A stretch of DNA of 24,000 nt from positions 6,916-30,915 of the forward strand of contig NZ_JAKLWS010000042.1 of NCBI RefSeq assembly GCF_022012475.1. Direction: 5' to 3'. Numbering within the stretch: position 1 is the first letter of the stretch; each line of letters begins with the position of its first letter. Both the position numbers and the translations under genes were made by a program. Source of the DNA: Rhodohalobacter sulfatireducens. Its GTDB lineage: Bacteria > Bacteroidota > Rhodothermia > Balneolales > Balneolaceae. Of this stretch, positions 5,320 through 23,481 are shown piece after piece. The notes below the pieces were generated by a model. The model had not been told where the DNA came from. It saw nothing but the letters and a program-made list of their open reading frames with translations, and ran no database searches.

Positions 5320-5546
5320 GATTCTATTGCCTGTGGCATCGGATGAGTGATCGAGCTATCTATTTCAAGCTATTGCACTCATTCGATGACTGGAATGGAT
5401 GAATGTAGTAGGTTCAACGTATCTGGTGATGAAGAATTAAATATTTCTAAGGATGGCGTATTCCTACTTTTTTTGTGTTGCAATAAGAATGGCACCATCT
5501 TCTATAGCATCTCAATATTTCATGAAGATCTGTGCAAGTAATGTGA

Positions 5547-5690
5547 GCCGATCTTTTCCTGGAAGATTTTCAAGTCGTTGATTCCTGCATGAGCCCGATT
5601 CTCTTTCCAAACCATGGCCACATGAAAGAGGATGATCTCGACGCATTCAGTGATGAACTTCCCGAATGGGTACGAAAAGTGAGGCTGTGA
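5547..5690 (+). pseudogene. 3' fragment of a paralog of the 10860-11177 gene
   Basis: The frame reads ...LEDFQVVDSCMSPILFPNHGHMKEDDLDAFSDELPEWVRKVRL*, versus ...RILLMLRHGLMKEEDLDGFSEELREWVRKVRQ* in the intact gene. There is an in-frame TGA at 5544-5546 and no upstream start. The same downstream sequence (aaagaatcgagggtattgtgaaga...) follows both. Confidence 0.6.
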
Positions 5691-6070
5691 AAAGAATCGA
5701 GGGTATTGTGAAGACTTGCGATATGCAATCTCTGACCGGATGAAACTTCGTATCAGTCTGGAGCCGGACAGGTATCTGAGATCGGATATATGTCCGACCA
5801 TTGTCGTGATCTATAATTTTATCCCCCAAGTCTTATTGGTCCTTGACGTATCTTTTGCAATGGATAACGAAGGATCGTTCATATCATATTTGTACTGAAG
5901 GCTTTTACCTTCGTTCGATTATAATAACTACCCTGAAACGGTTTAAATTTACGGTCTGTCTTTTTTTTAATAATTCTATTCAGCGTTTTAAAGATATAGA
6001 GAATGAGTGGTCCCAGGGAGAACGCCCTAATGATGACATGACGTTTATGGTCTTTAAAAAAATTATGGAT

Positions 6071-6909
6071 CGTGCCTATGGCACTCTCACCGTTTAGCTT
6101 TCTCTATCCCCGGAATAAATTCCGGGGTTATAAGATCCGCATCCGCAGGGCGGATTTGGAGATCTTGCTTGATTACTTAATACAAAATGAATCAGCGTAA
6201 GTTACTTGCATTCTTTTCACACTCTTTCCTTTGTACGAATTTTTTAAAATCCCACAAACCTGTTGTGTACCTCAAACAGCGTAGCTGCGCCCAATCCAGT
6301 ATCCCAGGGATTCATCCCTGGGGTAATTAGCGAACACGAACAAGTGAGTGCCGTCAGGCACGTTCCATATCCCTGAGGCTGTGGTGAATTGCTCTTGATT
6401 GTACCATGCAAGATTGACACTCAACTTTACTGATCGTACCTACGGCACTCTTTCCAGATTGACTCACTCGATCCCCGGAATGAATTCAGGGGTCATAATA
6501 TCATAATCCGCTCCGCGGATTTGTTGATGCTGCTCGATTATTTGAGTTTAAATTGAATCAACGTTATTTACTTGCAAGCTTTTCACACTCTTTGCTTTGT
6601 ACGAATTTTTCAAAATCCGCAAACCTGTTGTGTACCTCAAGCAGCGTAGCTGCGCCCAATCCTGTAACCCAGGGATTCATCCCTGGGGTAGTTAGCGAAC
6701 CTAAACAAGTAAGTGCCGTCAGGCACGTTCCATACCCCTGAGGCTGTGGTGACTTGCTCTTGATCGTACGAAGAAAGATTGACACCACTTTTACTATACG
6801 TACCTACGGCACTCTTTCCAGATTGACTCCCTCGATCCCCGGAATGAATTCCGGGGTTCCAATATCATCATCCGCTTCGCGGATTGGAAAGAATGAGACT
6901 TCAATCCTC
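6071..6909 (+). repeat. Composite multi-hairpin tandem repeat, left array (2 full units of 364 bp plus a 110-bp partial unit)
   Basis: Units start at 6071, 6435 and 6799, each with cgt(a/g)cctacggcactc. Each unit carries GC-rich hairpins. In unit 2 these are ccccggaatgaattcagggg (6474-6493), atccgctccgcggat (6507-6521), gcagcGTAgctgc (6641-6653), cccagggattcatccctgggg (6668-6687) and gtgccgtcaggcac (6713-6726). Confidence 0.85.
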
Positions 6910-7104
6910 AAAAATAAATAGCCAAGAGGTATAGCGTTTTTCTCTTTGTTAACGAAGGGTTTATCATTCCGGTTCGTTAAACCTTAATAGATTAGTGACG
7001 TGGGTATGATCTATGGTTTGGCTTCAGATTTTTTCGAAAAAACTGTAAGGAATTCCACTTTCCAAGTTCATACAAGAAGAGAATAATAATTAAAATCCAA
7101 TATT

Positions 7105-7566
7105 TTGGGTAACACATATTATCAGATGTATGTACAAACTGTTTTCCCAGTCAAATACAGAAAAGCGATGATCAACGACCTATGGAGACCGGGACTCCAG
7201 GGTGTTATCGGAAAAATAATCAATGATACCGAGTGCAAAACAATCATCATAAATGGTGTTGAAGATCATATTCACTGTCTATTTAGCCTAAAGCCTTCAC
7301 TTTCTCTTTCTGAGGTTATGAAAGAAGTCAAAGCCAAATCTTCAAAGTGGATCAATGAGAGTGGTTTTATTGAACACCGGTTTGAGTGGCAGCCGGGTTA
7401 CGGTGCGTTTTCATACAGCCAATCTCAATTGGGTTCTGTACATCGGTATATAAAGAATCAACAGGAGCATCATCAACAGATGAGCTTCAAGCAGGAGTAC
7501 ATCAAATTGCTTGATAAATTTCAGGTTGAGTATGATGAACGGTTTCTTTTTGATGAGTTGATATAA
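7105..7566 (+). CDS. IS200/IS605-type Y1 HUH transposase-like protein, REP-associated tyrosine transposase (RAYT)-like
   Basis: 153-aa ORF with a TTG start; an alternative ATG lies at 7126. It has the HUH motif 'EDHIHCLF' and the catalytic-Tyr motif 'VHRYIKNQQEHH'. The N-terminus 'NTYYQMYVQTVFPVKYRK' fits the family pattern. It is flanked on both sides by hairpin repeats. Confidence 0.8.
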   Translation: MGNTYYQMYVQTVFPVKYRKAMINDLWRPGLQGVIGKIINDTECKTIIINGVEDHIHCLFSLKPSLSLSEVMKEVKAKSSKWINESGFIEHRFEWQPGYGAFSYSQSQLGSVHRYIKNQQEHHQQMSFKQEYIKLLDKFQVEYDERFLFDELI

Positions 7567-7598
7567 GGACATAGTTGTCAGTCCCACTCTAAATGGAT

Positions 7599-8205
7599 CG
7601 TACCTACGGCACTCATTCCAAGATGAGAACCTCAATCCCCGGAATGAATTCCGGGGTTACAATATCATCATCCGCTCCGCGGATTGGAAAGAATGACACA
7701 TCAACTCTACTTATATCCGTGAATTGAAAGTTGTACCTCAAGCAGCGTAGCTGCGCCCAATACTGTAACCCAGGGATTCATCCCTGGGGTAGTTAGCGAA
7801 CCTGAACAATTGAGTGCCGTCAGGCACGGCCCATATCCCTGCGGCTGTGGTGACTTGCTCTTGATCGTACCATGTAAGATTGACACCACTTTTACTGAAC
7901 GTACCTACGGCACTCTTTCAAAGATAAGGTCCTCGATCCCCGGAATGAATTCCGGGGTTACAATATCATCATCCGCAGGGCGGATTTGGAGATCCTGCTT
8001 GATTACTTATTACAAATTGAAACAACGTTATTTACTTGCAAGCTTTTCACACTCTTTGCTTTGCACGAATTTTTTAAAATCCCGCAAACCTGATGTGTAC
8101 CTCAAGCAGCGTAGCTGCGCCCAATCCTGTAACCCAGGGATTCATCCCTGGGGTAGTTAGCGAACCTGAACAAGTGAGTGCCGTCAGGCACGTTCCATAC
8201 CCCTA
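7599..8205 (+). repeat. Composite multi-hairpin tandem repeat, right array (2 units; the first is shortened, the last is 3'-truncated)
   Basis: Units start at 7599 and 7900, in the same orientation and with the same hairpin set as the left array. Homology fades around 8205-8230. Confidence 0.85.
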
Positions 8206-8459
8206 AGACTTCGGCGGCTTGTGAAGATCGCCTTTTTTGTATTACGTGTTATACATGTACACATATCCGTTCACAATTTGAGCGATGACCGGTTCAACTT
8301 CGCATCAGTCAGCAGCCGGACAGGTATCTGAGATCGTTTAAAAGTATCCCTTTGGAGCAGATCTTCAATTTTATACCCATACCAGGAAATCCTGCAGCAA
8401 TAGACTTTTCCCACAAAAAAATGATGAAAACCGGGAGGTAGATGGGTTCAAAGAGTCAC

Positions 8460-10238: not shown

Positions 10239-10859
10239 TTAAATGATCTGCGAGTTTTAAAGTTTCGTGGCATCGTACTGTCTATGATATCATCACAAAA
10301 ACCACGTTTTTTAATGCGGGCATAAACTAACATCTAAGATGTATAAATAAACTTTAATTATTTTTATATAGACCATAAACAATACTATATACTTTGGGTT
10401 AGGTCTGATATGGAACATCTCTATATGCAAAGGCCGATTCCGTAAACCGTGCGAGTATTGTCTTTTATTTAATCCCCTGATTCAAACTGTTTCGATACGT
10501 GATGTGTGAAGTGCGAGTTTTATTGAAGTCATTGGTTGAGTGACTCAAGCACTGACTATGTTTAGTGCAAAATCAGTTATCATATTCCATTTGTGCTTTT
10601 TTGATATGCGATTGTAGATATGCAATCTCTGATCTATTTTATCCTCCACAGCAGTTCTCAATTCATAACCCTGCATGCCAATAAACGGCAACAAAAACAG
10701 CAAAGCGCAAATTATTTTTTCTGTTTTCGTGCTTTCGTGGCCTGTTTCATCAGGCCAGATCCTATTGCATAATTCACATCAATTTTGTTAAAAACTATTG
10801 GCATGCATAGATTTCTTGCATCAAAAAAGAAATAGATCTGTCAATCTAAACTCTCCGTA

Positions 10860-11177
10860 ATGAAACCAACCAAACGGGACTGGAAAATCTTTCGTGATAT
10901 GCTGCCGGAACTGCGAGAACGTTATCTCGCCGAACGCAACCAAACATTTATCACTCTTTTGAAAAGCGATGAACGAACACCAACGGAGCAGTTCTGGGAT
11001 ACGCTGGAGGCCATGAAGAAAGAAGCAAAAATACTGCAAGACTGCCTGAATGGATACACAAAATCCAACATGGATATGCGAATCCTGCTGATGCTCCGCC
11101 ACGGCCTCATGAAAGAGGAGGATCTGGATGGGTTTAGTGAAGAGCTGCGGGAATGGGTACGAAAAGTAAGACAGTAA
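10860..11177 (+). CDS. Hypothetical protein (helical; has a decayed paralog at 5547-5690)
   Basis: 105-aa ORF with an ATG start. I recognise no family. A paralogous fragment elsewhere in the window supports it being a real gene family. Confidence 0.5.
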   Translation: MKPTKRDWKIFRDMLPELRERYLAERNQTFITLLKSDERTPTEQFWDTLEAMKKEAKILQDCLNGYTKSNMDMRILLMLRHGLMKEEDLDGFSEELREWVRKVRQ

Positions 11178-11282
11178 AAAGAATCGAGGGTATTGTGAAG
11201 ATATGCAATATGCGATCTCTGATCTTTTTTACTTCACACTCACCGGGAGATTAAGGAATACCAATAACCGTATTCAAATTTT

Positions 11283-11347: not shown

Positions 11348-11800
11348 TCAGTTCTCCTGATAGATCTTAAGCAACTCTTTGCGTTTATAAAGCCGTTCAC
11401 CAATGTGAACTTTTGAACTCCCAAATGTTGCAGAAGCTTGTGCAATAAGTTTTTTCTCGTTTTCTGAGAGATTATTTTCCAGACGAACTGAACCTGCAGA
11501 TCCCTGATCTTTATACATAAGCAAAAGAACCTGTCGAACTTCATTTATGAAATTAAAGGCCCGGCAGTGCAAGAAAATATTGAGGACCAGGTCCGGTTCT
11601 GGAGAATCGCTGATTCGCTTTGGAAATGTGGCCAAAATGGTGACCTGTCCGTTTTTAACCTCTGCCACTTCAGCCCAAATCCCTTTAAACATGGCAATCC
11701 ATTTAATACCTGCCTGGGTAAAGGAATGATTAAGTTCTTTTAGCTCTTCGGCATTGAGCGTTATGTTGTATTTGCTTTTTTGATCGTTATTTGATTGCAT
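11348..11800 (-). CDS. Hypothetical protein (island-borne, unassigned)
   Basis: The ORF track gives 11348-11992 from a TTG. I prefer the first ATG (11798-11800; MQSNNDQKSKYNITL...), which gives 150 aa. I recognise no motif. Its AT-rich composition matches the island. Confidence 0.45.
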   Translation of the reverse strand: MQSNNDQKSKYNITLNAEELKELNHSFTQAGIKWIAMFKGIWAEVAEVKNGQVTILATFPKRISDSPEPDLVLNIFLHCRAFNFINEVRQVLLLMYKDQGSAGSVRLENNLSENEKKLIAQASATFGSSKVHIGERLYKRKELLKIYQEN

Positions 11801-12175
11801 AAGATGTAACGTTTTATGAAGATTTTGGTTCGTTACATCAAGACAGATAAGATGGGACTCGTATAATTGGATATCGAATCTAACTATCCCACATCGCTGA
11901 AACCACCGTGCCCGAGAAGGCCGGTTGGTAATTCGGCGGTAGACGAATTTCTTGACTTTTTTTGAAGATAAATATTGGTCAGAAATTCTCAACTTGTTTT
12001 AAAGGCTGTATTTTCGACCCTGCCACACTCAATTAGTGTGATTAGGTAATCAATTAATTGGATATGAAGATAACTGGAACTGATAAGTTGCTTCACTAAT
12101 GACTAAAAGCTTTTAAATTGAAAACTGACAGGAAAGAAAATAAATGTGACTAATGATTTATTAGGTACAACGTAT

Positions 12176-13021
12176 TCAAAAGTTCGGAAATCTATTATTT
12201 TTAATCTTCTTCTTTAATTCTTCAATTGTGTAAGGAGGTTTTTTTTTGTGGAGCATTGCATGACAGTTGGGACAAACAGGTACAAGATCTTTTTTGGGAT
12301 CTACGAAATATGTACCATCTATTTCTGACAAGGGTATTTTGTGATGCACATGAATGAAACCTTCTCCTATTTTGCCATAGATTTCTCCAAAATTCAAGGA
12401 ACATACCTTGCAGGTTGTACCATAAAGTTCAATGCATGCTGCTCGATTAATATTGCTCCGTTCATATCTTGTATTTGTAACTATATATGCCTCTCCTTCC
12501 TCCTCTACTGAATATCTATTTTCATTATCAATGGGCTCAAGAGGTAATAAAGAAATGCATAGACCAAAAAAAGAAATAACCCAAGGAAATACTTTTTCAA
12601 AGTCTTGATCAATTTCCTCTCCAAAAATAATCTGCCCCTTTCGCATTGAGATATCAATACTATTCCAGTTTATAGGCCATTGACTCGGCTCATTTGGTTT
12701 ATAAGATTGTTTATTTATTTGAAGATTTAAATCAGCTCCTTTCTCCAACAAGGATTCAGCGAAAACTTTGAAAGCAGCGCGCTGATTCTGATTAGAAGCC
12801 TCCATGGCGTTTACCAAATCTCTCGCAAAACTGCCCGGAACAAACTTGATTTCAACACTCCTCCACTTTAATTTTGTGAGGATTTTGAAACCAACCGTTC
12901 TTGCAAGATCTGATGGCCTAACAGTAATCGTTCTGTTGCCATGAAAACTTTCTATATTAACTGAAACATCAATACCGAATCGTTCTCTAAGTATTGATGA
13001 AGCATTATTTTCAGTAAGCAT
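12176..13021 (-). CDS. HNH endonuclease with an unassigned ~190-aa N-terminal domain
   Basis: The C-terminus is 'CKVCSLNFGEIYGKIGEGFIHVHHKIPLSEIDGTYFVDPKKDLVPVCPNCHAMLH' (CxxC...HH...CxxCH, a McrA-type zinc HNH). Its ATG (13019-13021) lies 1 nt after the upstream gene's TAG (13023-13025). Confidence 0.85.
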   Translation of the reverse strand: MLTENNASSILRERFGIDVSVNIESFHGNRTITVRPSDLARTVGFKILTKLKWRSVEIKFVPGSFARDLVNAMEASNQNQRAAFKVFAESLLEKGADLNLQINKQSYKPNEPSQWPINWNSIDISMRKGQIIFGEEIDQDFEKVFPWVISFFGLCISLLPLEPIDNENRYSVEEEGEAYIVTNTRYERSNINRAACIELYGTTCKVCSLNFGEIYGKIGEGFIHVHHKIPLSEIDGTYFVDPKKDLVPVCPNCHAMLHKKKPPYTIEELKKKIKNNRFPNF

Positions 13022-13022
13022 C

Positions 13023-14621
13023 CTATTCTTCTTCTAAAACTGGTTCAGGCAGATCTTCAACAAGTTTTCGCAGAATTCTTGAAACCTCGAATCTTAAATC
13101 CTGCATATGGTTTTTGGTTGTTTCACTCATTGTACGAAGCTCAGCTTCGATTAAAGACCAGAGCAAGGAATCCATACCCTGTATCAAGACTCCTGATGAA
13201 AGGTTAGGCACATAAACCTTACTGTAATAAGGATGGCCTGTATTAATTAAGACAGCTCGATTTCCATCTACAAGGGCCGGCTTCCAAAGCAAGCCATCAA
13301 CAATGCTTTCGACTGGCTTGACAAATACTTGGCCCGGCTTAACCGATGACTCTATATCCAATTTAATACTCACTTTGCCAGATTTATTGGTAACCTCTAC
13401 ATCATTCTGTTCCTCATCAACAACATCAATTTCAGCTCCTTTCAGATCCTTTTCCTTGCCTGAAATATTCCTGTTTGACTCATCATGAGCATCTTCCGAT
13501 TCTTCTTGGACTTTTTTCTTCTTGCCGGTCCTATATCTGTCATTAGCAGCAGTTCTAGGTGCAGGAAGAAATCTTTCGTGTACGAACTTGTAAAGTTCTT
13601 CATTTAGAATTATTTGAGATTTTTTTATATCAACCTGAAATGCCTCATCCAATTCATGATTAAATGAGAACTCAATTCTAAGAAGAGAGTAGTGAGGTTC
13701 CTTAGTGTACATTCCCAGCCAATCTGCAGGATGTATCAATCTGTTTTCTCTGTAAATGTAAATGCCTTGATTATCATTATTTATCTTGGCGCTCTCAGCA
13801 GCTTCCTCAGTACTGAAATTTTCATTGCGTGGTAGTACGAATGCCCGAATCTGAAACTCAGTTTCTGTTCCATCCCCAACCTCTACTTTGATACTCTCAT
13901 CAGCCACCATTTCAGTTTGTGGTTCTGATTCAAAAAATGGATTCCAAGGATCTATAGGTTTACCATTTAGATTCATCTCTATATTCCTTGCACGATCATC
14001 TTCAGGATCTAGAAATCGTTGATAAATCATTCCAGCATGTTCACGAAAACTCTTTACTCGTTTGTCCAAAGCTCTTTGCTCATATTTCCCCCCCGGAGTC
14101 GCATATTCTTTCAACAGTCTGTCAATAGTACCCCATATTACAAGAGTGCCTGATGAATTCTCAGCAGTTTTCTCAAGGTACTTTTTTTCAAAATTAGTTG
14201 GGCTCTCCAATAACAGCTCCCACTCAGCAACTTTCACCACGTGGTCAAGATCCCATGTAGCTTTTAGTGGTTCAACATCTGCGGAATGTCTAGTAATAAC
14301 AGATAATCTCCTGCAATAGGCAGTTGATGCAGTTTTTAGCCCGAGGCCAAATTTCCCCAATCTCTTGGGGTTGTTATCACCTTTGGAGCCATATGTCATA
14401 CCATCTTTCAAAGTTGTTTTATCCATTCCACAACCATTATCTGCCACCATGATTAATTTATCCCCGTCTCCGTCCATCTTGATGTAAATATCAATCTTGG
14501 TCGCATTTGCATCTACTGAGTTATCTACAATATCTGCCAATGCTGTATTGAAATCATAGCCCGTATCTCTTAATCCCTCCATTAATTTACTTGGATTGGG
14601 AGGTAAATTTACTTTATCCAT
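13023..14621 (-). CDS. MORC-like GHKL ATPase (HATPase_c_3-type)
   Basis: The Bergerat-fold motifs are present: 'ALADIVDNSVDANA' (N box), 'VADNGCGMD' (G1) and 'GKFGLGLKTAS' (G2). The MORC-type 'GIYIYRENRLIHPADW' lies downstream. The C-terminal half is long and charged. Confidence 0.8.
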   Translation of the reverse strand: MDKVNLPPNPSKLMEGLRDTGYDFNTALADIVDNSVDANATKIDIYIKMDGDGDKLIMVADNGCGMDKTTLKDGMTYGSKGDNNPKRLGKFGLGLKTASTAYCRRLSVITRHSADVEPLKATWDLDHVVKVAEWELLLESPTNFEKKYLEKTAENSSGTLVIWGTIDRLLKEYATPGGKYEQRALDKRVKSFREHAGMIYQRFLDPEDDRARNIEMNLNGKPIDPWNPFFESEPQTEMVADESIKVEVGDGTETEFQIRAFVLPRNENFSTEEAAESAKINNDNQGIYIYRENRLIHPADWLGMYTKEPHYSLLRIEFSFNHELDEAFQVDIKKSQIILNEELYKFVHERFLPAPRTAANDRYRTGKKKKVQEESEDAHDESNRNISGKEKDLKGAEIDVVDEEQNDVEVTNKSGKVSIKLDIESSVKPGQVFVKPVESIVDGLLWKPALVDGNRAVLINTGHPYYSKVYVPNLSSGVLIQGMDSLLWSLIEAELRTMSETTKNHMQDLRFEVSRILRKLVEDLPEPVLEEE

Positions 14622-14640
14622 AAGTCATCAGATTTTAGAA

Positions 14641-15066
14641 TTAAATATTAATTACTTTCCAGGAACTACCGAGCTTTAATTTTCCATTTTTGTCTGTTGA
14701 TATTTTATTCTGTTTCTCTAACTCGATTGAATAGATAGCATTATCATCTCGTTTCAATATTAGTTCATCACCTGCCTTTAGGCTGTGTTTTCTCATAAAT
14801 TTGGTCATTCCAGTTAATCGATACTCATTTCTGGTACCACCAAAAAATATATTGTTATAGTAAATATAATTGAATGTCCATTTTTCATTCATTGGATCTG
14901 CAAATTTGATTGAATGACGTGGATTCTTGGTTTCTTTGGTTAAAGAAGGAAAGAAGCTCAATATCTCCTGCTGCTTTGGTACATGAATACCTGCTTGATG
15001 AGCACCAGTTTCACCGGTATCATTTTTTGTCAATTCTTTACTTATAGATTTTGTTCTTTTTATCAT
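14641..15066 (-). CDS. Stand-alone EcoRII-N-terminal-like (B3-like pseudobarrel) DNA-binding domain protein
   Basis: The 141-aa protein aligns with the N-terminus of the EcoRII-like enzyme in this window. Compare 'LTKNDTGETGAHQAGIHVPK..FFPSL....KNP...IYYNNIFFGGTRNEYRLT' with 'LSGNDTLANGSHQAGPYVPK..VFPSL....KNP...IWYNNKFHGGTRNEARLT'. Confidence 0.8.
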   Translation of the reverse strand: MIKRTKSISKELTKNDTGETGAHQAGIHVPKQQEILSFFPSLTKETKNPRHSIKFADPMNEKWTFNYIYYNNIFFGGTRNEYRLTGMTKFMRKHSLKAGDELILKRDDNAIYSIELEKQNKISTDKNGKLKLGSSWKVINI

Positions 15067-15081
15067 AGTTATACGAATTTC

Positions 15082-17037
15082 TTAATTACTTAGAATTGGT
15101 GATTTTTTCAAAGATTTTCTAATATCTGCCAGATCCTCATCCTCGCCTTCAGTTCCAATTATGGCCTCTTCTGATAGCTCTCTTTTTCTTGACAATCTTT
15201 CATTAATCACTTCTTCAACTGTATTGGGATGATAGAGCCTGTGTACAGTAACGGGTCTTCTTTGTCCCAACCTGTGAACTCTGGCTGTGGCTTGATCTTC
15301 AACAGCTGGATTCCATTCAAGATTGTAATGAATGACATGATTTGCACTTGTAATATTTAAGCCAGTACCAGCAGCTTTGGGATTCAATACCAACAAAGAA
15401 GCACCCTCTCTTTCACTAAAAGCATCAACAATTTTCTGCCTTTCTTTAACAGGAATCCGCCCATCAATTTGATAACTTTTCATACCAAAATACCGAGACA
15501 GATAATCCGAAATAATATCAGACATGTTAAGGTATGAAGTAAACACCACACACTTTTCTTCATTGGACTTGATTTCGTCCATTAATTCCATAAGGCGTAA
15601 GAATTTAGTACTAGTAAAGGCAGGGTCACCATCAATGCTCTCATCAAGTAATTTGGGATGGGCACAAAATTGCCTGAGTTTGACTATTGATACCAAACTC
15701 GCATTGGCCTCATATTTCCTTTCAATCTCCAGCCTAATTTCTTCATATTTCCGACTTGCTTCATCAGAAAGGGGTATTGGTTGAGGAATAATAATTTTTT
15801 CAGGCAAATTGTTGGCTACTTCAGGTATGGTTCTTCTTAGGATAAAAGGAGAAACTATCTGTTCAACTCTTTTTGCATCCTCAATCGAATCTTGATAATT
15901 AGTCTCAAAATATTCTCTATCCCCAAGAAATCCTTTATTGCAAAAATCCATTATTGACCATAGATCAGTCAATGAATTTTCTACAGGTGTACCAGTAACT
16001 GCTATGTATACATCACTATCCAGTTTTTTTAAAATATTAGCTCTTTGGGTCTCTGGATTTTTTATTGCCTGGGCTTCATCTATGACAAAAAAGGACCAGT
16101 TTATCATGTTCAACATCGAATAATCTCTAACAGCAGTATCATAAGAGCTTATGACGATATCATACTCTTTGATGTATGAAGGAAATCCAGTGCGATCTGA
16201 TCCTATGTGGATTAAGATCTTTAGATCAGGAGCAAATTTTTTAATCTCTCTTCGCCAGTTCTCCAACAATGTTGCTGGAGCTATAACCAATGTTGGTGAA
16301 GGCATTTCCCTGTTGTTCAATAGAACTAATGCAATAATTTGAATAGTCTTTCCCAGTCCCATTTCATCTGCTAAAATACAACCCAGACGCTCTTGTGCTA
16401 TCATATTCAGCCAAAAAACACCAGTACGCTGGTAATCATAAAGTGTAGCCTCGAATCCGTTCTCGTCAAGTTTGGCTTGAACATCTAAATTCTGATCGAT
16501 TAAATCTTCTTTATCGAGAATTGCATCTTCAGATGTGATCTCTACGTATTCGGGTGCCCCCTTGGCTATCTCTATACATTTTGACAGGTTTATTGGCCCT
16601 GAAGATTCAAGCTCAAAGTCCTCAAATAGGGAATGGATTTGATCCATTTCAGACTTGAGTATTGGGTACCACTGAGAATCCAGGATAAGCTGATCTGAAT
16701 CGGGGAGTTTTTTTAGGTCTACTCTTATGTTTTCACCAACCGCTTTTAGTAATAAATGTGGTTTGACTTTCTTTGTCTCAGGAATTAAAAGCTTAACTTC
16801 AATAGAAAGGGGAAAACGGTGAAATTTTAGGTTTTTGAGTTCAATAGATGGTTTATTTCTTATGTTGGTCCCATGAATCTCCTTTTTATCTTTGTACTCA
16901 ACCTTTACTATATCTGATGAATTTATTTTAATTAATTGTCCTGAGTCAACAAATACAACCTCCCCATTTTTAATTTGCCACTGATTGGTATTTGACACTT
17001 CAGTTCTATTCCGAGCATCTTGGTTAAGAGATTTCAT
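15082..17037 (-). CDS. SNF2-family (SF2) helicase/translocase with an unassigned ~190-aa N-terminal region
   Basis: It has 'LYDYQRTGVFWL', 'LADEMGLGKT' (motif I), 'FVIDEAQAIKN' (motif II) and 'VTGTPVEN'. The C-terminal lobe has 'LLVLNPKAAGTGLNITSANHVIHYNLEWNPAVEDQATARVHRLGQ'. Confidence 0.9.
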   Translation of the reverse strand: MKSLNQDARNRTEVSNTNQWQIKNGEVVFVDSGQLIKINSSDIVKVEYKDKKEIHGTNIRNKPSIELKNLKFHRFPLSIEVKLLIPETKKVKPHLLLKAVGENIRVDLKKLPDSDQLILDSQWYPILKSEMDQIHSLFEDFELESSGPINLSKCIEIAKGAPEYVEITSEDAILDKEDLIDQNLDVQAKLDENGFEATLYDYQRTGVFWLNMIAQERLGCILADEMGLGKTIQIIALVLLNNREMPSPTLVIAPATLLENWRREIKKFAPDLKILIHIGSDRTGFPSYIKEYDIVISSYDTAVRDYSMLNMINWSFFVIDEAQAIKNPETQRANILKKLDSDVYIAVTGTPVENSLTDLWSIMDFCNKGFLGDREYFETNYQDSIEDAKRVEQIVSPFILRRTIPEVANNLPEKIIIPQPIPLSDEASRKYEEIRLEIERKYEANASLVSIVKLRQFCAHPKLLDESIDGDPAFTSTKFLRLMELMDEIKSNEEKCVVFTSYLNMSDIISDYLSRYFGMKSYQIDGRIPVKERQKIVDAFSEREGASLLVLNPKAAGTGLNITSANHVIHYNLEWNPAVEDQATARVHRLGQRRPVTVHRLYHPNTVEEVINERLSRKRELSEEAIIGTEGEDEDLADIRKSLKKSPILSN

Positions 17038-17263
17038 GATTTGTACTATCTCAAGTAGAATTAATTGCAGGCATACCTATAAAAACCTATTTAAAGATTT
17101 TTTGCAAAACATCTGCATTAATTTGACTATAAGAAAATTATATACTTGGTTTTTTCCCGCATCATTACTGTAAAATTTCGTTACTTAAAAAGACAGATAT
17201 GCATTATTTTTAAAGAAAATAAAAAGTATTTCAGGTCTTTTATAGTTTTTTTAAAAACTCTTC

Positions 17264-17293
17264 TTTGATATGTAAGAATTATGTTTATATTTG
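17264..17293 (+). promoter_or_regulatory. Putative Bacteroidota-type promoter (TTTG -33 / TAnnTTTG -7) for the HTH-dcm gene
   Basis: TTTG at 17264-17267 and TATATTTG at 17286-17293 are separated by 18 nt. The motif lies 29 nt upstream of the ATG at 17323. It is relevant only if the host uses the Bacteroidota sigma-A consensus. Confidence 0.35.
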
Positions 17294-17322
17294 GGACAAA
17301 ATGTCAAAAAAAGTCCCAGATC

Positions 17323-18606
17323 ATGGAAAAATTTAATACTCTCAGAGAAAAAGCAGGATTATCAATCGAAGAAGTTGCAGAGCTTACTAACTATAGTAAA
17401 AGACATGTATACAGATGGGAGAATGGAAAAATTAAACCCAAGAAGCCAATCCTAGATGAATTATCTCGAATAGCTGAGAATGGTATTTCTTTTAAAGCCA
17501 ATGGCAAAACAGAATTTACTTTCATTGATTTATTTGCAGGAATTGGAGGAATGAGGAAAGGTTTTGAAAGTGTTGGTGGAAAATGTGTGTTTACAAGTGA
17601 GTGGAATAAATATGCCCGGCAAACCTATGCTGCTAATTTTGAAATGGACCATGATATTGCAGGGGACATAACAAAAATATCAGAGAAAGATATACCTGAA
17701 CACGATGTTTTGCTTGCTGGATTTCCTTGTCAACCTTTCTCTATTGCAGGCGTTTCAAAGAAAAACTCCCTTGGAAATCCACATGGTTTTGAAGACAAGA
17801 CGCAAGGTACTTTATTTTTTGATATTGCAAGAATTCTCAAGCATCATAAACCGTCTGCCATTTTATTGGAGAATGTTAAAAATCTTGTAAGTCATGACAA
17901 GGGGAAAACTTTTCAGGTGATTAAAGACACACTTCAAGAACTGGATTATTTCTTTGATACCCGAATAATTGATGCAAAATCTTTTCTTCCACAACATAGA
18001 GAAAGAATTTTTATTGCTGGATTCAGAACTGATTTAGGATTTGATTTTTCAGAATTAGATATACCTGATGTGAATTCCGGTCCTAAACTTAAATCAATTT
18101 TACATCCCCAAGATGGAAGCGAAGAGGAAGAATTACCTTTTACAATTGGTGAAAAAGCCAAAGTTAATCCTAAATACACTTTAAGTGACAAACTCTGGAA
18201 TTACCTCCAAGATTATGCTGAAAAGCACAGAAAAAAGGGAAATGGTTTTGGTTTTGGATTGGTAGGTCCCGAAGATACTACCAGAACCTTGTCTGCTAGA
18301 TACTATAAAGACGGATCCGAAATTTTGCTTAAACAAGAAGGAAAAAACCCTCGAAGATTAACACCTCGTGAATGTTCTCGATTGATGGGATTTGATAGAA
18401 CCGGAGAAAATGGATTTGAAATACCTGTTTCAGATACCCAAGCTTATAAACAATTTGGTAATGCAGTGGCCGTACCTGTTGTGGAAGAGATTGCCAAATT
18501 TATAAAGCCTTTTATTCTGGAAGAGAAGAAACAGAAAGGGCAATTATTTATGTTTTCAGGAACCACTGATGATGGCAAGAATGAATATTTATCTAAAAGT
18601 GGTTAA
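17323..18606 (+). CDS. dcm: DNA (cytosine-5) methyltransferase, Dcm/M.EcoRII-like, with an N-terminal XRE-type HTH domain
   Basis: The HTH is 'LREKAGLSIEEVAELTNYSKRHVYRWENGK'. The m5C motifs are 'FIDLFAGIGGMRKGF' (I), 'LLAGFPCQPFS' (IV), 'LLENVKNL' (VI), 'RRLTPRECSRLMGF' and 'QFGNAVAVPV' (X). The track start at 17281 adds 14 unlikely residues, so I prefer the ATG at 17323 (MEKFNTL...). Confidence 0.9.
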   Translation: MEKFNTLREKAGLSIEEVAELTNYSKRHVYRWENGKIKPKKPILDELSRIAENGISFKANGKTEFTFIDLFAGIGGMRKGFESVGGKCVFTSEWNKYARQTYAANFEMDHDIAGDITKISEKDIPEHDVLLAGFPCQPFSIAGVSKKNSLGNPHGFEDKTQGTLFFDIARILKHHKPSAILLENVKNLVSHDKGKTFQVIKDTLQELDYFFDTRIIDAKSFLPQHRERIFIAGFRTDLGFDFSELDIPDVNSGPKLKSILHPQDGSEEEELPFTIGEKAKVNPKYTLSDKLWNYLQDYAEKHRKKGNGFGFGLVGPEDTTRTLSARYYKDGSEILLKQEGKNPRRLTPRECSRLMGFDRTGENGFEIPVSDTQAYKQFGNAVAVPVVEEIAKFIKPFILEEKKQKGQLFMFSGTTDDGKNEYLSKSG

Positions 18607-18691
18607 TGGAATTATTATTTAAATGATGACTTCTAAATACAATAATAAAGTAGTCTATGAAAAAGAAACTGCATAACAATGAGAAAATTCA

Positions 18692-19918
18692 ATGAAGCCT
18701 AAATTAATTAGTTGGATTGATGATGTTAAAACTCCGGGGTACATATGCTACATAAAGCGACTTTCAGGAAATGATACACTCGCAAATGGTTCTCATCAAG
18801 CAGGTCCATATGTACCTAAAAAAGTACTACTAGGCGTATTTCCATCTCTTAAAAATAAAAATGAGAAAAATCCAGATATATGGTTCGATTTATTCATTGA
18901 TTCCCATAATGACCAAAATGAAGTACGGGCAATTTGGTACAACAATAAATTTCATGGAGGGACAAGGAATGAAGCTCGTTTGACTAATTTCGGAGGTTCT
19001 AATTCTGCTTTACTTGATCCTGATAACACAGGAGCTCTTGTTGTTTTTGCCTTTTTATTGGACAATAAATGTCAAACTGAAGTTTGCAGAGTTTGGATTT
19101 GCAGTGATGAGTTAGAAGAGCGAATAGTTGAAGATTGGGTTGGACCAATTGATCCGGGGCAATGGCAAATATGGTATGATGAAGAATTTGATTGTGCAAA
19201 AACTCTGGTGACTGATTATGAGAAAGACCTTACAAAAAAATCTTGTTGGCTAGATAAGGATGAAATTCCAAAAGGATGGCTGGAAAATTATCCCAGTGGT
19301 TTGGAGATAATAAAAAAGACCGTTGAACTAAGGCCCAGTTACAAGCTACTTCCCGATGAAAGGATAATTAAAAGACGGGAATGTGAATTTGAAGTCTTTA
19401 AGAGCTTGGAAGAAGCTGTAGAATTTCCAAGAATAAAAAAAGGGTTTAAAAATATAGATGAATTTTTGTCAAGAGCACAGAGTATTCTTCAACGCAGAAA
19501 ATCACGTTCTGGATATTCACTGGAATTACATACAAAAGAAATCTTTTTGGAAGAAAATTTAAAAGAGAGTGTACATTTTTCACATCAACCAGAATCAGAA
19601 AAAGGGAAAAAGCCAGACTTTCTTTTTCCGTCTGAAGAAGCTTATAAAAATTCAGGTTTTCCGACTTCTAATCTTAAAATGCTTGCAGTAAAAACTACAT
19701 GTAAAGATAGATGGCGTCAGATTCTTAATGAGGCAGAAAGAATTGAAAAAAAGCATTTGTTAACTATCCAAGAAGGTGTTTCAGAGAACCAATTTAATGA
19801 AATGAAAAAATCTAGTGTTCAGTTAGTAGTACCTGAACCTCTCTTCAAAAAATATCCTGAAAAAATTAGACCACAGCTTCAAACACTTGAGAGTTTTATT
19901 AAAGAGGTTAAAACTTGA
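18692..19918 (+). CDS. EcoRII-family type IIE restriction endonuclease (expected CCWGG specificity)
   Basis: The 408-aa protein is collinear with R.EcoRII as I recall it. The N-terminal effector domain has 'YIKRLSGNDT..GSHQAG' and 'DPDNTGALVVFAF'. The catalytic domain has 'KKPDFLFPS' and 'LKMLAVKTTCKDRWRQILNEA', followed by 'LLTIQEGVS'. Confidence 0.9.
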   Translation: MKPKLISWIDDVKTPGYICYIKRLSGNDTLANGSHQAGPYVPKKVLLGVFPSLKNKNEKNPDIWFDLFIDSHNDQNEVRAIWYNNKFHGGTRNEARLTNFGGSNSALLDPDNTGALVVFAFLLDNKCQTEVCRVWICSDELEERIVEDWVGPIDPGQWQIWYDEEFDCAKTLVTDYEKDLTKKSCWLDKDEIPKGWLENYPSGLEIIKKTVELRPSYKLLPDERIIKRRECEFEVFKSLEEAVEFPRIKKGFKNIDEFLSRAQSILQRRKSRSGYSLELHTKEIFLEENLKESVHFSHQPESEKGKKPDFLFPSEEAYKNSGFPTSNLKMLAVKTTCKDRWRQILNEAERIEKKHLLTIQEGVSENQFNEMKKSSVQLVVPEPLFKKYPEKIRPQLQTLESFIKEVKT

Positions 19919-19921
19919 TTA

Positions 19922-20347
19922 TTATTTTAAATTATTTTGAAGGTTATTGGCTAATCCAGCTAATGTTTTGGTCTTTTTATCCGGTTTCATCTCACACTCC
20001 CAAACAACAATAACATTCCATCCCAAATCTTCCAATTCCTGAATATGCTTTTCATCACGTTCCTTATTTCCGTAAAGCTTCTCTTTCCACCATTCTGTTC
20101 GGGTTTGAGGAATTTTAAAATATTTGCAATCCTCATGCGCATGCCAAAAACACCCATGTACAAAAATGACTGTATTGTATTTAGGCATGACCAGATCCGG
20201 CTTTCCCGGTAAGTCTTTTCTGTGAAGACCGTATCGAAAGCCATTGGTGTGCAGAAATTTCCGGACAATCATTTCAGGCTTGGTATCCTTGCCTGAAATC
20301 TTGCTCATGTTATAACTGCGGGTTTCCGGCTCGTGTACGTCTGCCAT
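19922..20347 (-). CDS. vsr: Very-short-patch repair endonuclease
   Basis: 'MADVHEPETRSYNMSKI...', 'LPGKPDLVMPKYNTVIFVHGCFWHAHEDC', 'TRTEWWKEKLYGNKERD' and 'GWNVIVVWECE' closely follow E. coli Vsr. It converges on the EcoRII-like gene with a 3-nt gap. Confidence 0.9.
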   Translation of the reverse strand: MADVHEPETRSYNMSKISGKDTKPEMIVRKFLHTNGFRYGLHRKDLPGKPDLVMPKYNTVIFVHGCFWHAHEDCKYFKIPQTRTEWWKEKLYGNKERDEKHIQELEDLGWNVIVVWECEMKPDKKTKTLAGLANNLQNNLK

Positions 20348-20351
20348 CTCA

Positions 20352-20633
20352 TTAAGATTCTATGTTTTTCAATTCAATAAACTCACCTATAAAATTACCA
20401 ATCTCTTCGTATTCCTCATCAAACTTCAGAACGATTTGCCTCGTTACCAGATCCACCCATTCTTTAATTTCTGATCTGTTATCAAATTCCTTTAAAAAGA
20501 TTAGCATTGGGTTCTCAACAGTAAAATCATCATTAAAAAACAAACAAATATCTGTCTTAAAAGAATCTCTGTAGTTATCCTCCGCCTGATAAAGATAGGT
20601 TTTGAGTGTTCTTATCTTGTCTTTGTAATTCAT
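20352..20633 (-). CDS. Hypothetical small acidic protein, upstream of and apparently co-transcribed with vsr
   Basis: The track ORF (to 20681) starts at a TTG. I prefer the ATG at 20631-20633 (MNYKDKIRTLK..., 93 aa). Its stop is 4 nt before the vsr start. I recognise no family. Confidence 0.45.
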   Translation of the reverse strand: MNYKDKIRTLKTYLYQAEDNYRDSFKTDICLFFNDDFTVENPMLIFLKEFDNRSEIKEWVDLVTRQIVLKFDEEYEEIGNFIGEFIELKNIES

Positions 20634-20817
20634 GATAAAAAAGCCAGTTTCACAGTCCGTATGTCCTGAATATAGCAGCAAAAAATCAGAAACAAAGGCA
20701 CTTATCTCAATATCTCCTAGCTGAAGATATATCCGAACGCAGAGATGTTAAAGCGTAGATGATAGATTCATTTGACTGCATGCATTTAATATCGAATCGC
20801 GCCTGATGAATATCAAC

Positions 20818-23190: not shown

Positions 23191-23481
23191 CTACGTTCGG
23201 GATTTCCAGTACCCCGTGCTTCGCCTTAAGTCCATAACAGCAAATATGGTAATATGTTTTTTTGCTACTGAATAGATAATTCCAAATGGAAAGCGAGACA
23301 CTAAGAACCTTCTTTCATAGTTCGTGATTTTAGTTCCCGAAGAAGGTTGCTGTTCAATAACATCCAGAACTTTTTCAACTTCATTAATAAAATCATCCCC
23401 AAGACCAACAACTTGATCCTCGTAATATTCAGCTGCTTTAAAAAATTCTTTTCTGGATTCTGAATGAAATTTAATAGTCAC
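23191..23481 (-). CDS. Type II toxin, RelE/ParE family
   Basis: 96 aa. 'IKFHSESRKEFFKAAEYYE', 'FPFGIIYSVAKKHITIFAVMDLRRSTGYW' fits the ParE/RelE pattern. It starts 2 nt after the upstream antitoxin's stop. Confidence 0.75.
   Translation of the reverse strand: MTIKFHSESRKEFFKAAEYYEDQVVGLGDDFINEVEKVLDVIEQQPSSGTKITNYERRFLVSRFPFGIIYSVAKKHITIFAVMDLRRSTGYWKSRT

Follow-up and report, generated by a model that had tools for sequence, protein, structure and literature searches.

We have analysed a stretch of 24,000 nucleotides from the bacterium Rhodohalobacter sulfatireducens (RefSeq assembly GCF_022012475.1, contig NZ_JAKLWS010000042.1, positions 6,916 to 30,915), called the window in what follows, which contains a low-GC island of seven genes (Table 1). 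Four of them form an operon for an SNF2-family ATPase, a small stand-alone protein related to B3 domains and to the N-terminal domain of EcoRII (EcoRII-N), a MORC ATPase and an HNH nuclease; the other three encode a Dcm-type cytosine C5 methyltransferase fused to a helix-turn-helix (HTH), a homologue of the EcoRII endonuclease and a Vsr repair endonuclease. It is probable, in our view, that these genes make up one defence island, in which a single mark, 5-methylcytosine (m5C) in CCWGG (W is A or T), licenses both EcoRII and the SNF2–B3–MORC–HNH operon. The initial annotation of this DNA had listed the seven genes with their coordinates and domains and had named the Dcm gene as the only methyltransferase, and on both counts the map of open reading frames (ORFs) and the Pfam scan agree with it: no further methyltransferase domain was found in the ORFs scanned, which were those of at least 80 residues together with a partial ORF at the left end of the window. 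It had also suggested that one CCWGG mark might serve both nuclease modules. This part of the suggestion is supported by the linkage of the methyltransferase to the operon in related loci and by the residues kept in the B3 protein, whilst the way in which the genes had been divided into modules has to be reversed.

The linkage was measured in a survey of 106 orthologous MORC loci (MORC ~50–82% identical), retrieved with a MORC alignment from species-representative genomes, IMG/VR contigs and metagenomes and coming from more than 12 phyla. For annotation, all ORFs in the six frames were compared by phmmer with the proteins of the window. A Dcm-type gene lies within 2.5 kb of the core, at a median distance of 78 bp, in 74 of the 106 loci, not all of which are phylogenetically independent (several metagenome contigs are near-duplicates). 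The remaining 32 are cut by the end of a contig and are uninformative on this point. An informative absence was defined as a locus lacking Dcm although each of its flanks extends for 3 kb or more, and in the survey there was none. Linkage of Dcm to the MORC core is thus obligate in every locus where it can be judged, and the survey of adjacency that the initial annotation proposed came out positive. The commonest layout, found in 16 loci, is the co-directional cassette Dcm–SNF2–B3–MORC–HNH–Vsr with minimal gaps, followed by Dcm–Vsr–SNF2–B3–MORC–HNH (nine loci) and Vsr–Dcm–SNF2–B3–MORC–HNH (five). The cassette measures ~7 kb and is spread across phyla, and 62 of the 74 loci that bear Dcm also have Vsr.

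EcoRII behaves differently. It is found in 20 of the same 74 loci and absent from 54, its position varies among loci, and its sequences fall into at least two sub-lineages. The MORC of Fodinibius sp. AD559 is 82% identical to that of the window, and there an EcoRII-like gene stands between Vsr and SNF2, but it is only 40% identical to the window's, with the identity restricted to the C-domain. Because of the obligate linkage and the co-directional modal cassette we place Dcm and Vsr in the core of the MORC system, and because of its frequent absence, varied positions and separate sub-lineages we regard EcoRII as a recurrent, optional and swappable add-on. This turns round the initial division into a Dcm/EcoRII/Vsr cassette beside an operon without a methyltransferase of its own, since Dcm and Vsr are the end genes of the modal cassette. 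Wherever EcoRII occurs, the target recognition domain (TRD) of the accompanying Dcm has 52% or more identity to the TRD of E. coli Dcm. The loci that bear B3 span two classes of Dcm TRD, and covariation between reader and TRD is therefore only partly informative.

The second line of evidence concerns the B3 protein. Its relative in the PDB is EcoRII-N (3HQF/1NA6, at 9e-8), for which the structure with CCTGG shows that the base-specific contacts are all made by N28, H36, Q37, Y85, R94, E96 and R98 (PMC2770665). Binding is abolished by m5C in either strand, through displacement of the water bound by Q37 or a clash with Y85 (PMC2770665). All seven of these residues are identical in 23 of 23 stand-alone B3 proteins, that is, the window's and 22 orthologues, and so are K23, N61, T93 and T100 of EcoRII-N; Q37 and Y85 correspond to Q24 and Y70 in the window's B3. 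As every residue that contacts a base or senses the methyl group has been kept, B3 is most economically read as a protein that recognises CCWGG when this site is unmethylated, and we predict from these residues that the stand-alone protein binds this site in a methyl-sensitive manner.

The 408-residue product of the window's EcoRII gene corresponds to 1NA6 with an E-value of 5e-100 over residues 7–406. The N-domain contact residues are conserved in it, and in the catalytic domain, judged from the 1NA6 alignment against PMC2770665, the triad K328–D329–R330 that recognises CC:GG is identical (KTTCKDRWRQ), whilst in the base-flipping pocket for the central A/T R222, E225 and F229 are kept and Y226 is replaced by F. 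With both domains present and the recognition residues kept, the protein belongs to the EcoRII type of the Type IIE enzymes, and the requirement of EcoRII for a second, effector site is established. The island thus holds, with reference to the EcoRII structures (1NA6, 3HQF, 3HQG), both a full-length homologue and, in B3, a homologue of the effector domain. The latter differs from EcoRII in being free-standing, without a PD-(D/E)XK domain, and in being encoded between SNF2 and MORC ATPases; whereas the effector domain of EcoRII itself relieves allosteric autoinhibition, B3, on recognising a site, would act through ATP-driven motors and an HNH nuclease.

Membership of the window Dcm in the C5 methyltransferase family is indicated by PF00145 (Table 1) and by a TIGR00675 score of 325, with a cut-off of 100.65. 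The core of the protein is 59–62% and the TRD 55–56% identical to E. coli K-12 Dcm, and it is linked in the window to an EcoRII of the CCWGG type and to B3, from which it is predicted to methylate CCWGG. Vsr scores 146.6 with TIGR00632 (cut-off 97.85). Enzymes of this family repair the products of m5C deamination at Dcm sites and accompany Dcm-type methylases generally. The role of repair partner that the initial annotation gave to Vsr fits its presence in most of the Dcm-bearing loci. There are 42 CCWGG sites in the host-like flanks of the island vs 18.5 ± 4.4 after mononucleotide shuffling, and 48 across the whole window vs 33 ± 5.6 after dinucleotide shuffling; within the island no significant depletion was seen (3 observed, 5.3 ± 2.3 expected). 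CCWGG is thus not avoided in the host-like flanks, which fits a chromosome protected by methylation rather than by avoidance of the site.

Further indications come from the control region between the Dcm gene and the operon. We prefer the Dcm start at ATG 17323 over an upstream ATG at 17281 since the orthologues align from residue 1–5 of the former. Six base pairs before this ATG ends a palindromic element, GGGACAAAATGTC followed by A7 and GTCCC, of which the window copy is interrupted. A palindrome of the form (G)GACA-N3-TGTC(C) stands upstream of the start in 13 of 20 related HTH–Dcm genes, where ~0.03 would be expected in total. Adjoining the palindrome on the Dcm side is TTTG-N18-TATATTTG, the sole such match in the intergenic region, which on the consensus of Bacteroides promoters is a candidate for the Dcm promoter. 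Overlapping it on the operon side is a sigma-70-like promoter sequence on the minus strand (TTGACA-18-CATAAT, 17307..17278), which matches at 11 of 12 positions and is the best such match in the whole intergenic region. A second box, (A/T)NCCCAG, is seen shortly downstream of the palindrome and before the Dcm start in the window (17313–17319) and in the surveyed loci L013, L082, L123, L124, L157 and L175.

The palindrome resembles AGGACAATTTGTCCT, the operator of the SsoII and Ecl18kI systems, in which the methylase binds the operator, represses its own promoter and indirectly switches on the divergent restriction gene (PMC2760811). The window has the features of this type, namely a C5 methylase with an HTH at its N terminus and, directly upstream of its gene, a palindrome in a divergent region that faces restriction genes. 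We therefore predict, from sequence, that the HTH of Dcm binds the palindrome (Table 1), and by analogy with the SsoII/Ecl18kI-type methylases Dcm probably regulates its own expression through it. The window differs from the SsoII/Ecl18kI/EcoRII-type arrangements in that the divergent partner is the SNF2 operon, with the Type II endonuclease lying downstream of Dcm, so that the wiring, if it is of this kind, would tie Dcm to the four-gene operon and not to EcoRII.

The remaining proteins of the operon keep the motifs of intact enzymes. On its motifs, the window ATPase qualifies as a genuine prokaryotic MORC. The GHKL motifs (N-box, G1 and G2) are present and invariant as DIVDNSVDA, DNGCGM and GKFGLGLK. 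The S5 motif GhXhhpXXRhl, shared by MORCs and setting them apart from paraMORCs and MutL (Iyer et al. 2008, PMC2292703), is found as GIYIYRENRLI at residues 286–296, where G286, Y288, Y290, R291, E292, N293, R294 and L295 are invariant in 19 orthologues; it aligns weakly with GMFIYNCSRLI of MORC2. A profile of the family finds human MORC2 best in the PDB (1.5e-10), with MutL at 6e-7, and orthologues from other phyla are 50–68% identical to the window protein. The translated SNF2 protein contains Walker A (DEMGLGKT), the DEAQ box and motif VI (QATARVHRLGQ), and its best PADLOC model is ZorD (2e-142), with DpdE at 4e-99. Its N-terminal domain (~residues 20–190) is conserved among orthologues, with W20, P76 and W123 invariant. 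A homologue search with the isolated 216 residues gave nothing, a profile built from the loci found no PDB relative, and a single-sequence AlphaFold2 model was unusable (pLDDT, the predicted local distance difference test, 30.5). The HNH protein consists of an N-terminal domain (~1–160), a disordered linker and a zinc-finger HNH domain (~190–260), in which the ligands C204, C207, C250 and C253 and the residues H224, H226, H227, N252, H254 and H258 are invariant in 31 homologues. Its AlphaFold2 model has a mean pLDDT of 85.5, and no PDB fold match to the modelled N-domain was found at E ≤ 1e-3, so there is no hint in it of a known modified-base reader.

Taken together, these observations suggest the following scheme. 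The HTH-fused Dcm would methylate the inner cytosine of CCWGG on host DNA, and Vsr would repair the T:G mismatches that arise from deamination of m5C. The native partner of this pair would be SNF2–B3–MORC–HNH. On incoming DNA, B3 would bind unmethylated CCWGG and recruit or activate the SNF2 translocase and the MutL-like MORC clamp; SNF2 would translocate and MORC would dimerise or clamp, both driven by ATP, and the HNH subunit would cut the DNA, the whole being an ATP-dependent, methylation-sensitive restriction enzyme made of separate subunits. EcoRII would act as an accessory second nuclease at the same unmethylated site, blocked by the same mark and independently cutting DNA that carries two or more unmethylated sites. 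A layered design, in which a translocating enzyme covers DNA that escapes the multi-site requirement of EcoRII, is plausible; EcoRII may also simply settle where a protective methylase already exists.

Several observations weigh against this scheme. Four backbone contacts of EcoRII-N (Y41, R81, K92 and R101) are changed in B3, which also lacks the C-terminal third of the EcoRII-N domain, and some relatives have no B3 at all, so that B3 is not the only possible reader. The CCWGG specificity of Dcm is deduced from a TRD identity of ~55%, the protein scores 429 with the NCBIfam sub-family model PRK10458, under the cut-off of 710, and there are loci of the L001 type with Dcm TRDs only 39–48% identical to that of E. 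coli Dcm. In the window itself Dcm is divergent from the operon and does not form part of it. The position of the GHKL catalytic Glu in MORC is occupied by Asp (D30, in DIVDN), invariantly in 19 aligned orthologues, where MORC2 has E35 (ELVDN) and MutL has ELVEN. For the N-domains of both the HNH and the SNF2 proteins no relative was found in the PDB. In the literature searched we met with no experimental work on bacterial MORC restriction–modification (R-M) systems, paraMORC3/Shedu being the one branch found to have been tested.

The divergence of the two blocks in the window, and the resemblance of Dcm–EcoRII to a normal Type II pair, would also be expected if Dcm, EcoRII and Vsr were a self-contained Type II R-M system and SNF2–B3–MORC–HNH a separate one that ignores Dcm methylation, the two being neighbours since defence genes cluster in islands for other reasons. 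We consider this very unlikely, as all 74 informative loci have Dcm beside the MORC core and 54 of them have no EcoRII, Dcm and Vsr flank the four genes co-directionally in the modal cassette, and B3 keeps the methyl-sensitive contacts. The same linkage bears on the alternative raised in the initial annotation, in which the HNH module would depend on modification (Type IV-like) and attack DNA with a foreign modification. The PADLOC model mREase_IV does match the HNH protein (E = 2.6e-6), but in the HNH region only, and JGI labels homologues '5-methylcytosine-specific restriction protein A', which appears to us to stem from a generic McrA/HNH domain assignment. Such an enzyme would need neither an obligately linked methyltransferase nor Vsr, the operon has no sequence reader other than B3, a homologue of a domain that m5C blocks (PMC2770665), and the N-domain of HNH, although confidently modelled, has no significant fold match in the PDB and thus gives no hint of a known reader. 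The Type IV explanation finds no support in these data and is highly improbable.

More might be said for a machine that is coupled to methylation for repair or for chromosome structure and does not restrict DNA: the MutL-like MORC would either aid Vsr or, like the eukaryotic MORCs, compact or silence unmethylated DNA. MORC is a relative of MutL, MutL of E. coli stimulates Vsr, and Vsr is conserved alongside in 62 of the 74 loci. An analogy with MutL/Vsr and DNA looping was stressed by Iyer et al. (2008). This explanation is nevertheless improbable: Vsr goes with Dcm-type methylases in any case and needs no extra role here, the catalytic residues and zinc ligands of HNH are invariant, HNH is swapped in some relatives for a nuclease pair of AAA_5 and LlaJI type (McrBC-like), and the sporadic spread over more than 12 phyla and viral contigs is that of defence islands. 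Rearrangement of the window relative to the modal cassette, with Dcm divergent and Vsr inverted, could also mean that in this genome the four genes are what is left of a module in decay and that only Dcm, EcoRII and Vsr are active, and relatives in decay do exist (L007 with a split SNF2 and EcoRII fragments, L149 with a split MORC). We give hardly any credence to decay in the window, where all four ORFs are full length and tightly spaced and every conserved motif is kept. One CCWGG mark that licenses both nucleases is the reading we retain.

Operons of this composition were predicted computationally by Iyer, Abhiman and Aravind (Biol Direct 2008, 3:8), who described type 2 MORC–SWI2/SNF2 R-M operons with MORC and SWI2/SNF2 genes, an HNH or EcoRII-like nuclease and a stand-alone VP1/RAV (B3) protein, and found cytosine methylase and Vsr to be frequent in them (Iyer et al. 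2008). All of these components, in a matching gene set that includes the MORC-defining S5 motif, are present in the window and in the orthologous loci. The 2008 account differs from the present one in being qualitative, in giving B3 no methyl-sensitive role at CCWGG and in leaving core and accessory genes unsplit. What is newly added here is the quantified linkage to Dcm, the division into core and accessory genes, the residue-level prediction of CCWGG binding by B3 and the SsoII-like operator.

PADLOC and NCBIfam gave no system label to the island, only matches to single components (a ZorD/DpdE-like SNF2, an MzaB-like ATPase and a DrmMII-like methylase). Zorya, Dpd, DISARM and MZA were rejected as identities, since their partner genes are absent and the matches fall below the curated cut-offs; the NCBIfam scores are 260 for ZorD (cut-off 1500), 71 for DpdE (500) and 120 for DrmD (950). 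No other Zorya or Dpd genes (ZorABC, DpdA-K) were found in the window. Class 2 DISARM shares with the window an SNF2-family helicase (DrmD) and a C5 methylase (DrmMII), and the PADLOC model of the latter matches the window Dcm at 1.5e-134. The likeness ends with this match and the weak one to DrmD: the window lacks DrmA, DrmB (DUF1998), DrmC and DrmE, and DISARM lacks MORC, B3 and HNH. DrmMII of DISARM reportedly methylates CCWGG as its self mark (Ofir et al. 2018). The LlaJI-type and McrBC-like R-M systems, which are methylation-sensitive and NTP-dependent, follow the same logic, in that a site-specific reader of unmethylated DNA works with an NTPase motor and with a nuclease on another subunit, and the R1 subunit of LlaJI uses a B3-like N-terminal domain; they employ an AAA+ GTPase and a PD-(D/E)XK nuclease, whereas the window has SNF2, GHKL/MORC and HNH. 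Type I and Type III R-M, ZorD and DpdE offer a parallel in cleavage of unmodified DNA coupled to a superfamily 2 (SF2) translocase, with protection by a cognate methylase. In contrast to Type I and Type III systems, the window has no HsdS/HsdM or Mod and has an independent, monomer-type C5 methylase.

Table 1. Features of the island in the window (positions from the first nucleotide of the window; E-values are for Pfam domains)
Feature	Position	Strand	Details
HNH nuclease subunit	12176–13021	−	281 residues; HNH at residues 204–260, E = 7e-6
Prokaryotic MORC ATPase (GHKL + S5)	13023–14621	−	532 residues; HATPase_c_3, E = 3e-28
Stand-alone B3/EcoRII-N-like protein, predicted reader	14641–15066	−	141 residues; EcoRII-N 4e-17 and B3 5e-7 only
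SNF2-family ATPase/translocase	15082–17037	−	651 residues; SNF2-rel_dom 1.5e-62, Helicase_C 2.7e-21
Divergent intergenic control region, SNF2 operon/HTH–Dcm	17038–17322		285 bp, 24.9% GC
Candidate Dcm promoter, Bacteroidota type, TTTG-N18-TATATTTG	17264–17293	+	Regular-expression scan
Operator-like palindrome	17293–17317		GGGACAAAATGTC at 17293–17305, then A7 and GTCCC (17313–17317); predicted HTH site
HTH-fused C5 cytosine methyltransferase, Dcm type	17323–18606	+	DNA_methylase (PF00145) 3.5e-88, HTH_3 1.2e-9
Full-length EcoRII-family Type IIE endonuclease	18692–19918	+	408 residues; EcoRII-N 2e-53, EcoRII-C 1e-62
Vsr very-short-patch-repair endonuclease	19922–20347	−	141 residues; Vsr 1.4e-32; convergent with EcoRII

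Among the surveyed loci, HNH follows MORC in the great majority, with L169, L172, L015 and L136 as the exceptions. In L169 (6907–10284) it is replaced by a pair directly after MORC, an AAA_5 (McrB-like) protein and RE_LlaJI, identified by Pfam in this locus; L172 (4713–8191) has ORFs that match the L169 pair in size and position. The gene after MORC in L136 (4010–7009) encodes a TIR–WD40–Roc protein, and a large ORF is similarly placed in L015 (3717–5360). Cassettes without B3, in which SNF2 directly abuts MORC, are found in L145, L160, L161, L163, L165, L168, L169 and L172, and their Dcm TRDs are 41–47% identical to that of E. coli Dcm. Wherever the upstream sequence is present, SNF2 is preceded in these by a conserved ORF of ~280 residues with no Pfam match, which could be an alternative reader. 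That it might be a divergent B3 was rejected (hhalign probability 0.4%).

Five complete Dcm–SNF2–B3–MORC–HNH–Vsr cassettes (L083–L087) lie on IMG/VR contigs classed as viral, which suggests carriage on phages or other mobile elements; L086 is flanked by DUF4815, amidoligase/GATase/GGACT genes, an AAA_13 ATPase and SbcCD-like genes. In L144, where 8 kb downstream and 1.2 kb upstream of a MORC orthologue (1236–2861, E = 2e-181) are available, HNH, Dcm and Vsr were not detected in the former stretch, nor B3 or SNF2 in the latter, and this MORC may be an orphan or belong to a different context. More distant MORCs, 31–36% identical, occur in Bacillales and Paenibacillus genomes (L021–L041) directly downstream of a large, distantly related C5 methylase. 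SNF2, B3 and HNH are absent from these loci, and Vsr lies close by in some of them. This adjacency indicates that the link between MORC and cytosine methylases extends beyond the family of the window's MORC.

The genes of the window operon are separated by gaps of 15, 19 and 1 bp in the order of transcription. The GC content of the island is 35.8%, that of its flanks 44–45%. Its MORC protein is 100% identical to one recorded for R. sulfatireducens (Balneolota), and a megablast of the island gave no match in complete E. coli genomes. No tRNA gene was found in the window, and the borders of the island have no tRNA and no clean flanking direct repeat. At its edges are ORFs of 214 residues (11348–11992, minus strand) and 109 residues (20352–20681, minus strand), the latter on the Vsr strand and 4 bp upstream of that gene. 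Searches with both in Pfam, PADLOC and NCBIfam gave no match, and no related locus has a counterpart of either. Near the right end of the window lies an ORF for a ParE-family toxin (23191–23481, minus strand; ParE_toxin 7e-6). To the left of the island, the region 6102–8221 contains repeat units of ~365 bp (74–90% identical), two on either side of an ORF for an IS200-like Y1 transposase (7105–7566; Y1_Tnp 4e-28), and each unit holds one CCAGG-N8-CCTGG pair. Dispersed repeats are found at 5612–5793, 8296–8345, 10618–10641 and 11099–11231, of three types (124 nucleotides at 83% identity, 50 nucleotides at 86%, and a 24-nucleotide unit in three copies). They border small unannotated ORFs (5520–5801 and 10821–11102) just left of the low-GC island and may mark a boundary of insertion or duplication.

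If the reading put forward here is right, one cheap mark, m5C in CCWGG, would license two mechanistically different nucleases and give layered immunity within one island: EcoRII needs at least two sites, a requirement that might not hold for the motor-driven MORC/SNF2/HNH enzyme. The MORC silencing ATPases of eukaryotes presumably descend from bacterial MORCs, and a compact cassette with a predictable CCWGG specificity would be a practical entry to the study of how MORC acts on DNA and cooperates with SNF2. Going further, we see about an even chance that the cassette represents a distinct and widespread class of ATP-dependent R-M systems, in which reading of unmethylated CCWGG by B3 would lead to the MORC clamp and SNF2 and from there to cleavage by HNH. 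By its combination of a reader of the unmethylated state with MORC and SNF2, such a class would be a prokaryotic prototype of the eukaryotic chromatin-silencing machinery, and EcoRII, which would have joined the system at this mark in roughly one island in four, that of the window included, would make of it a two-tier barrier.

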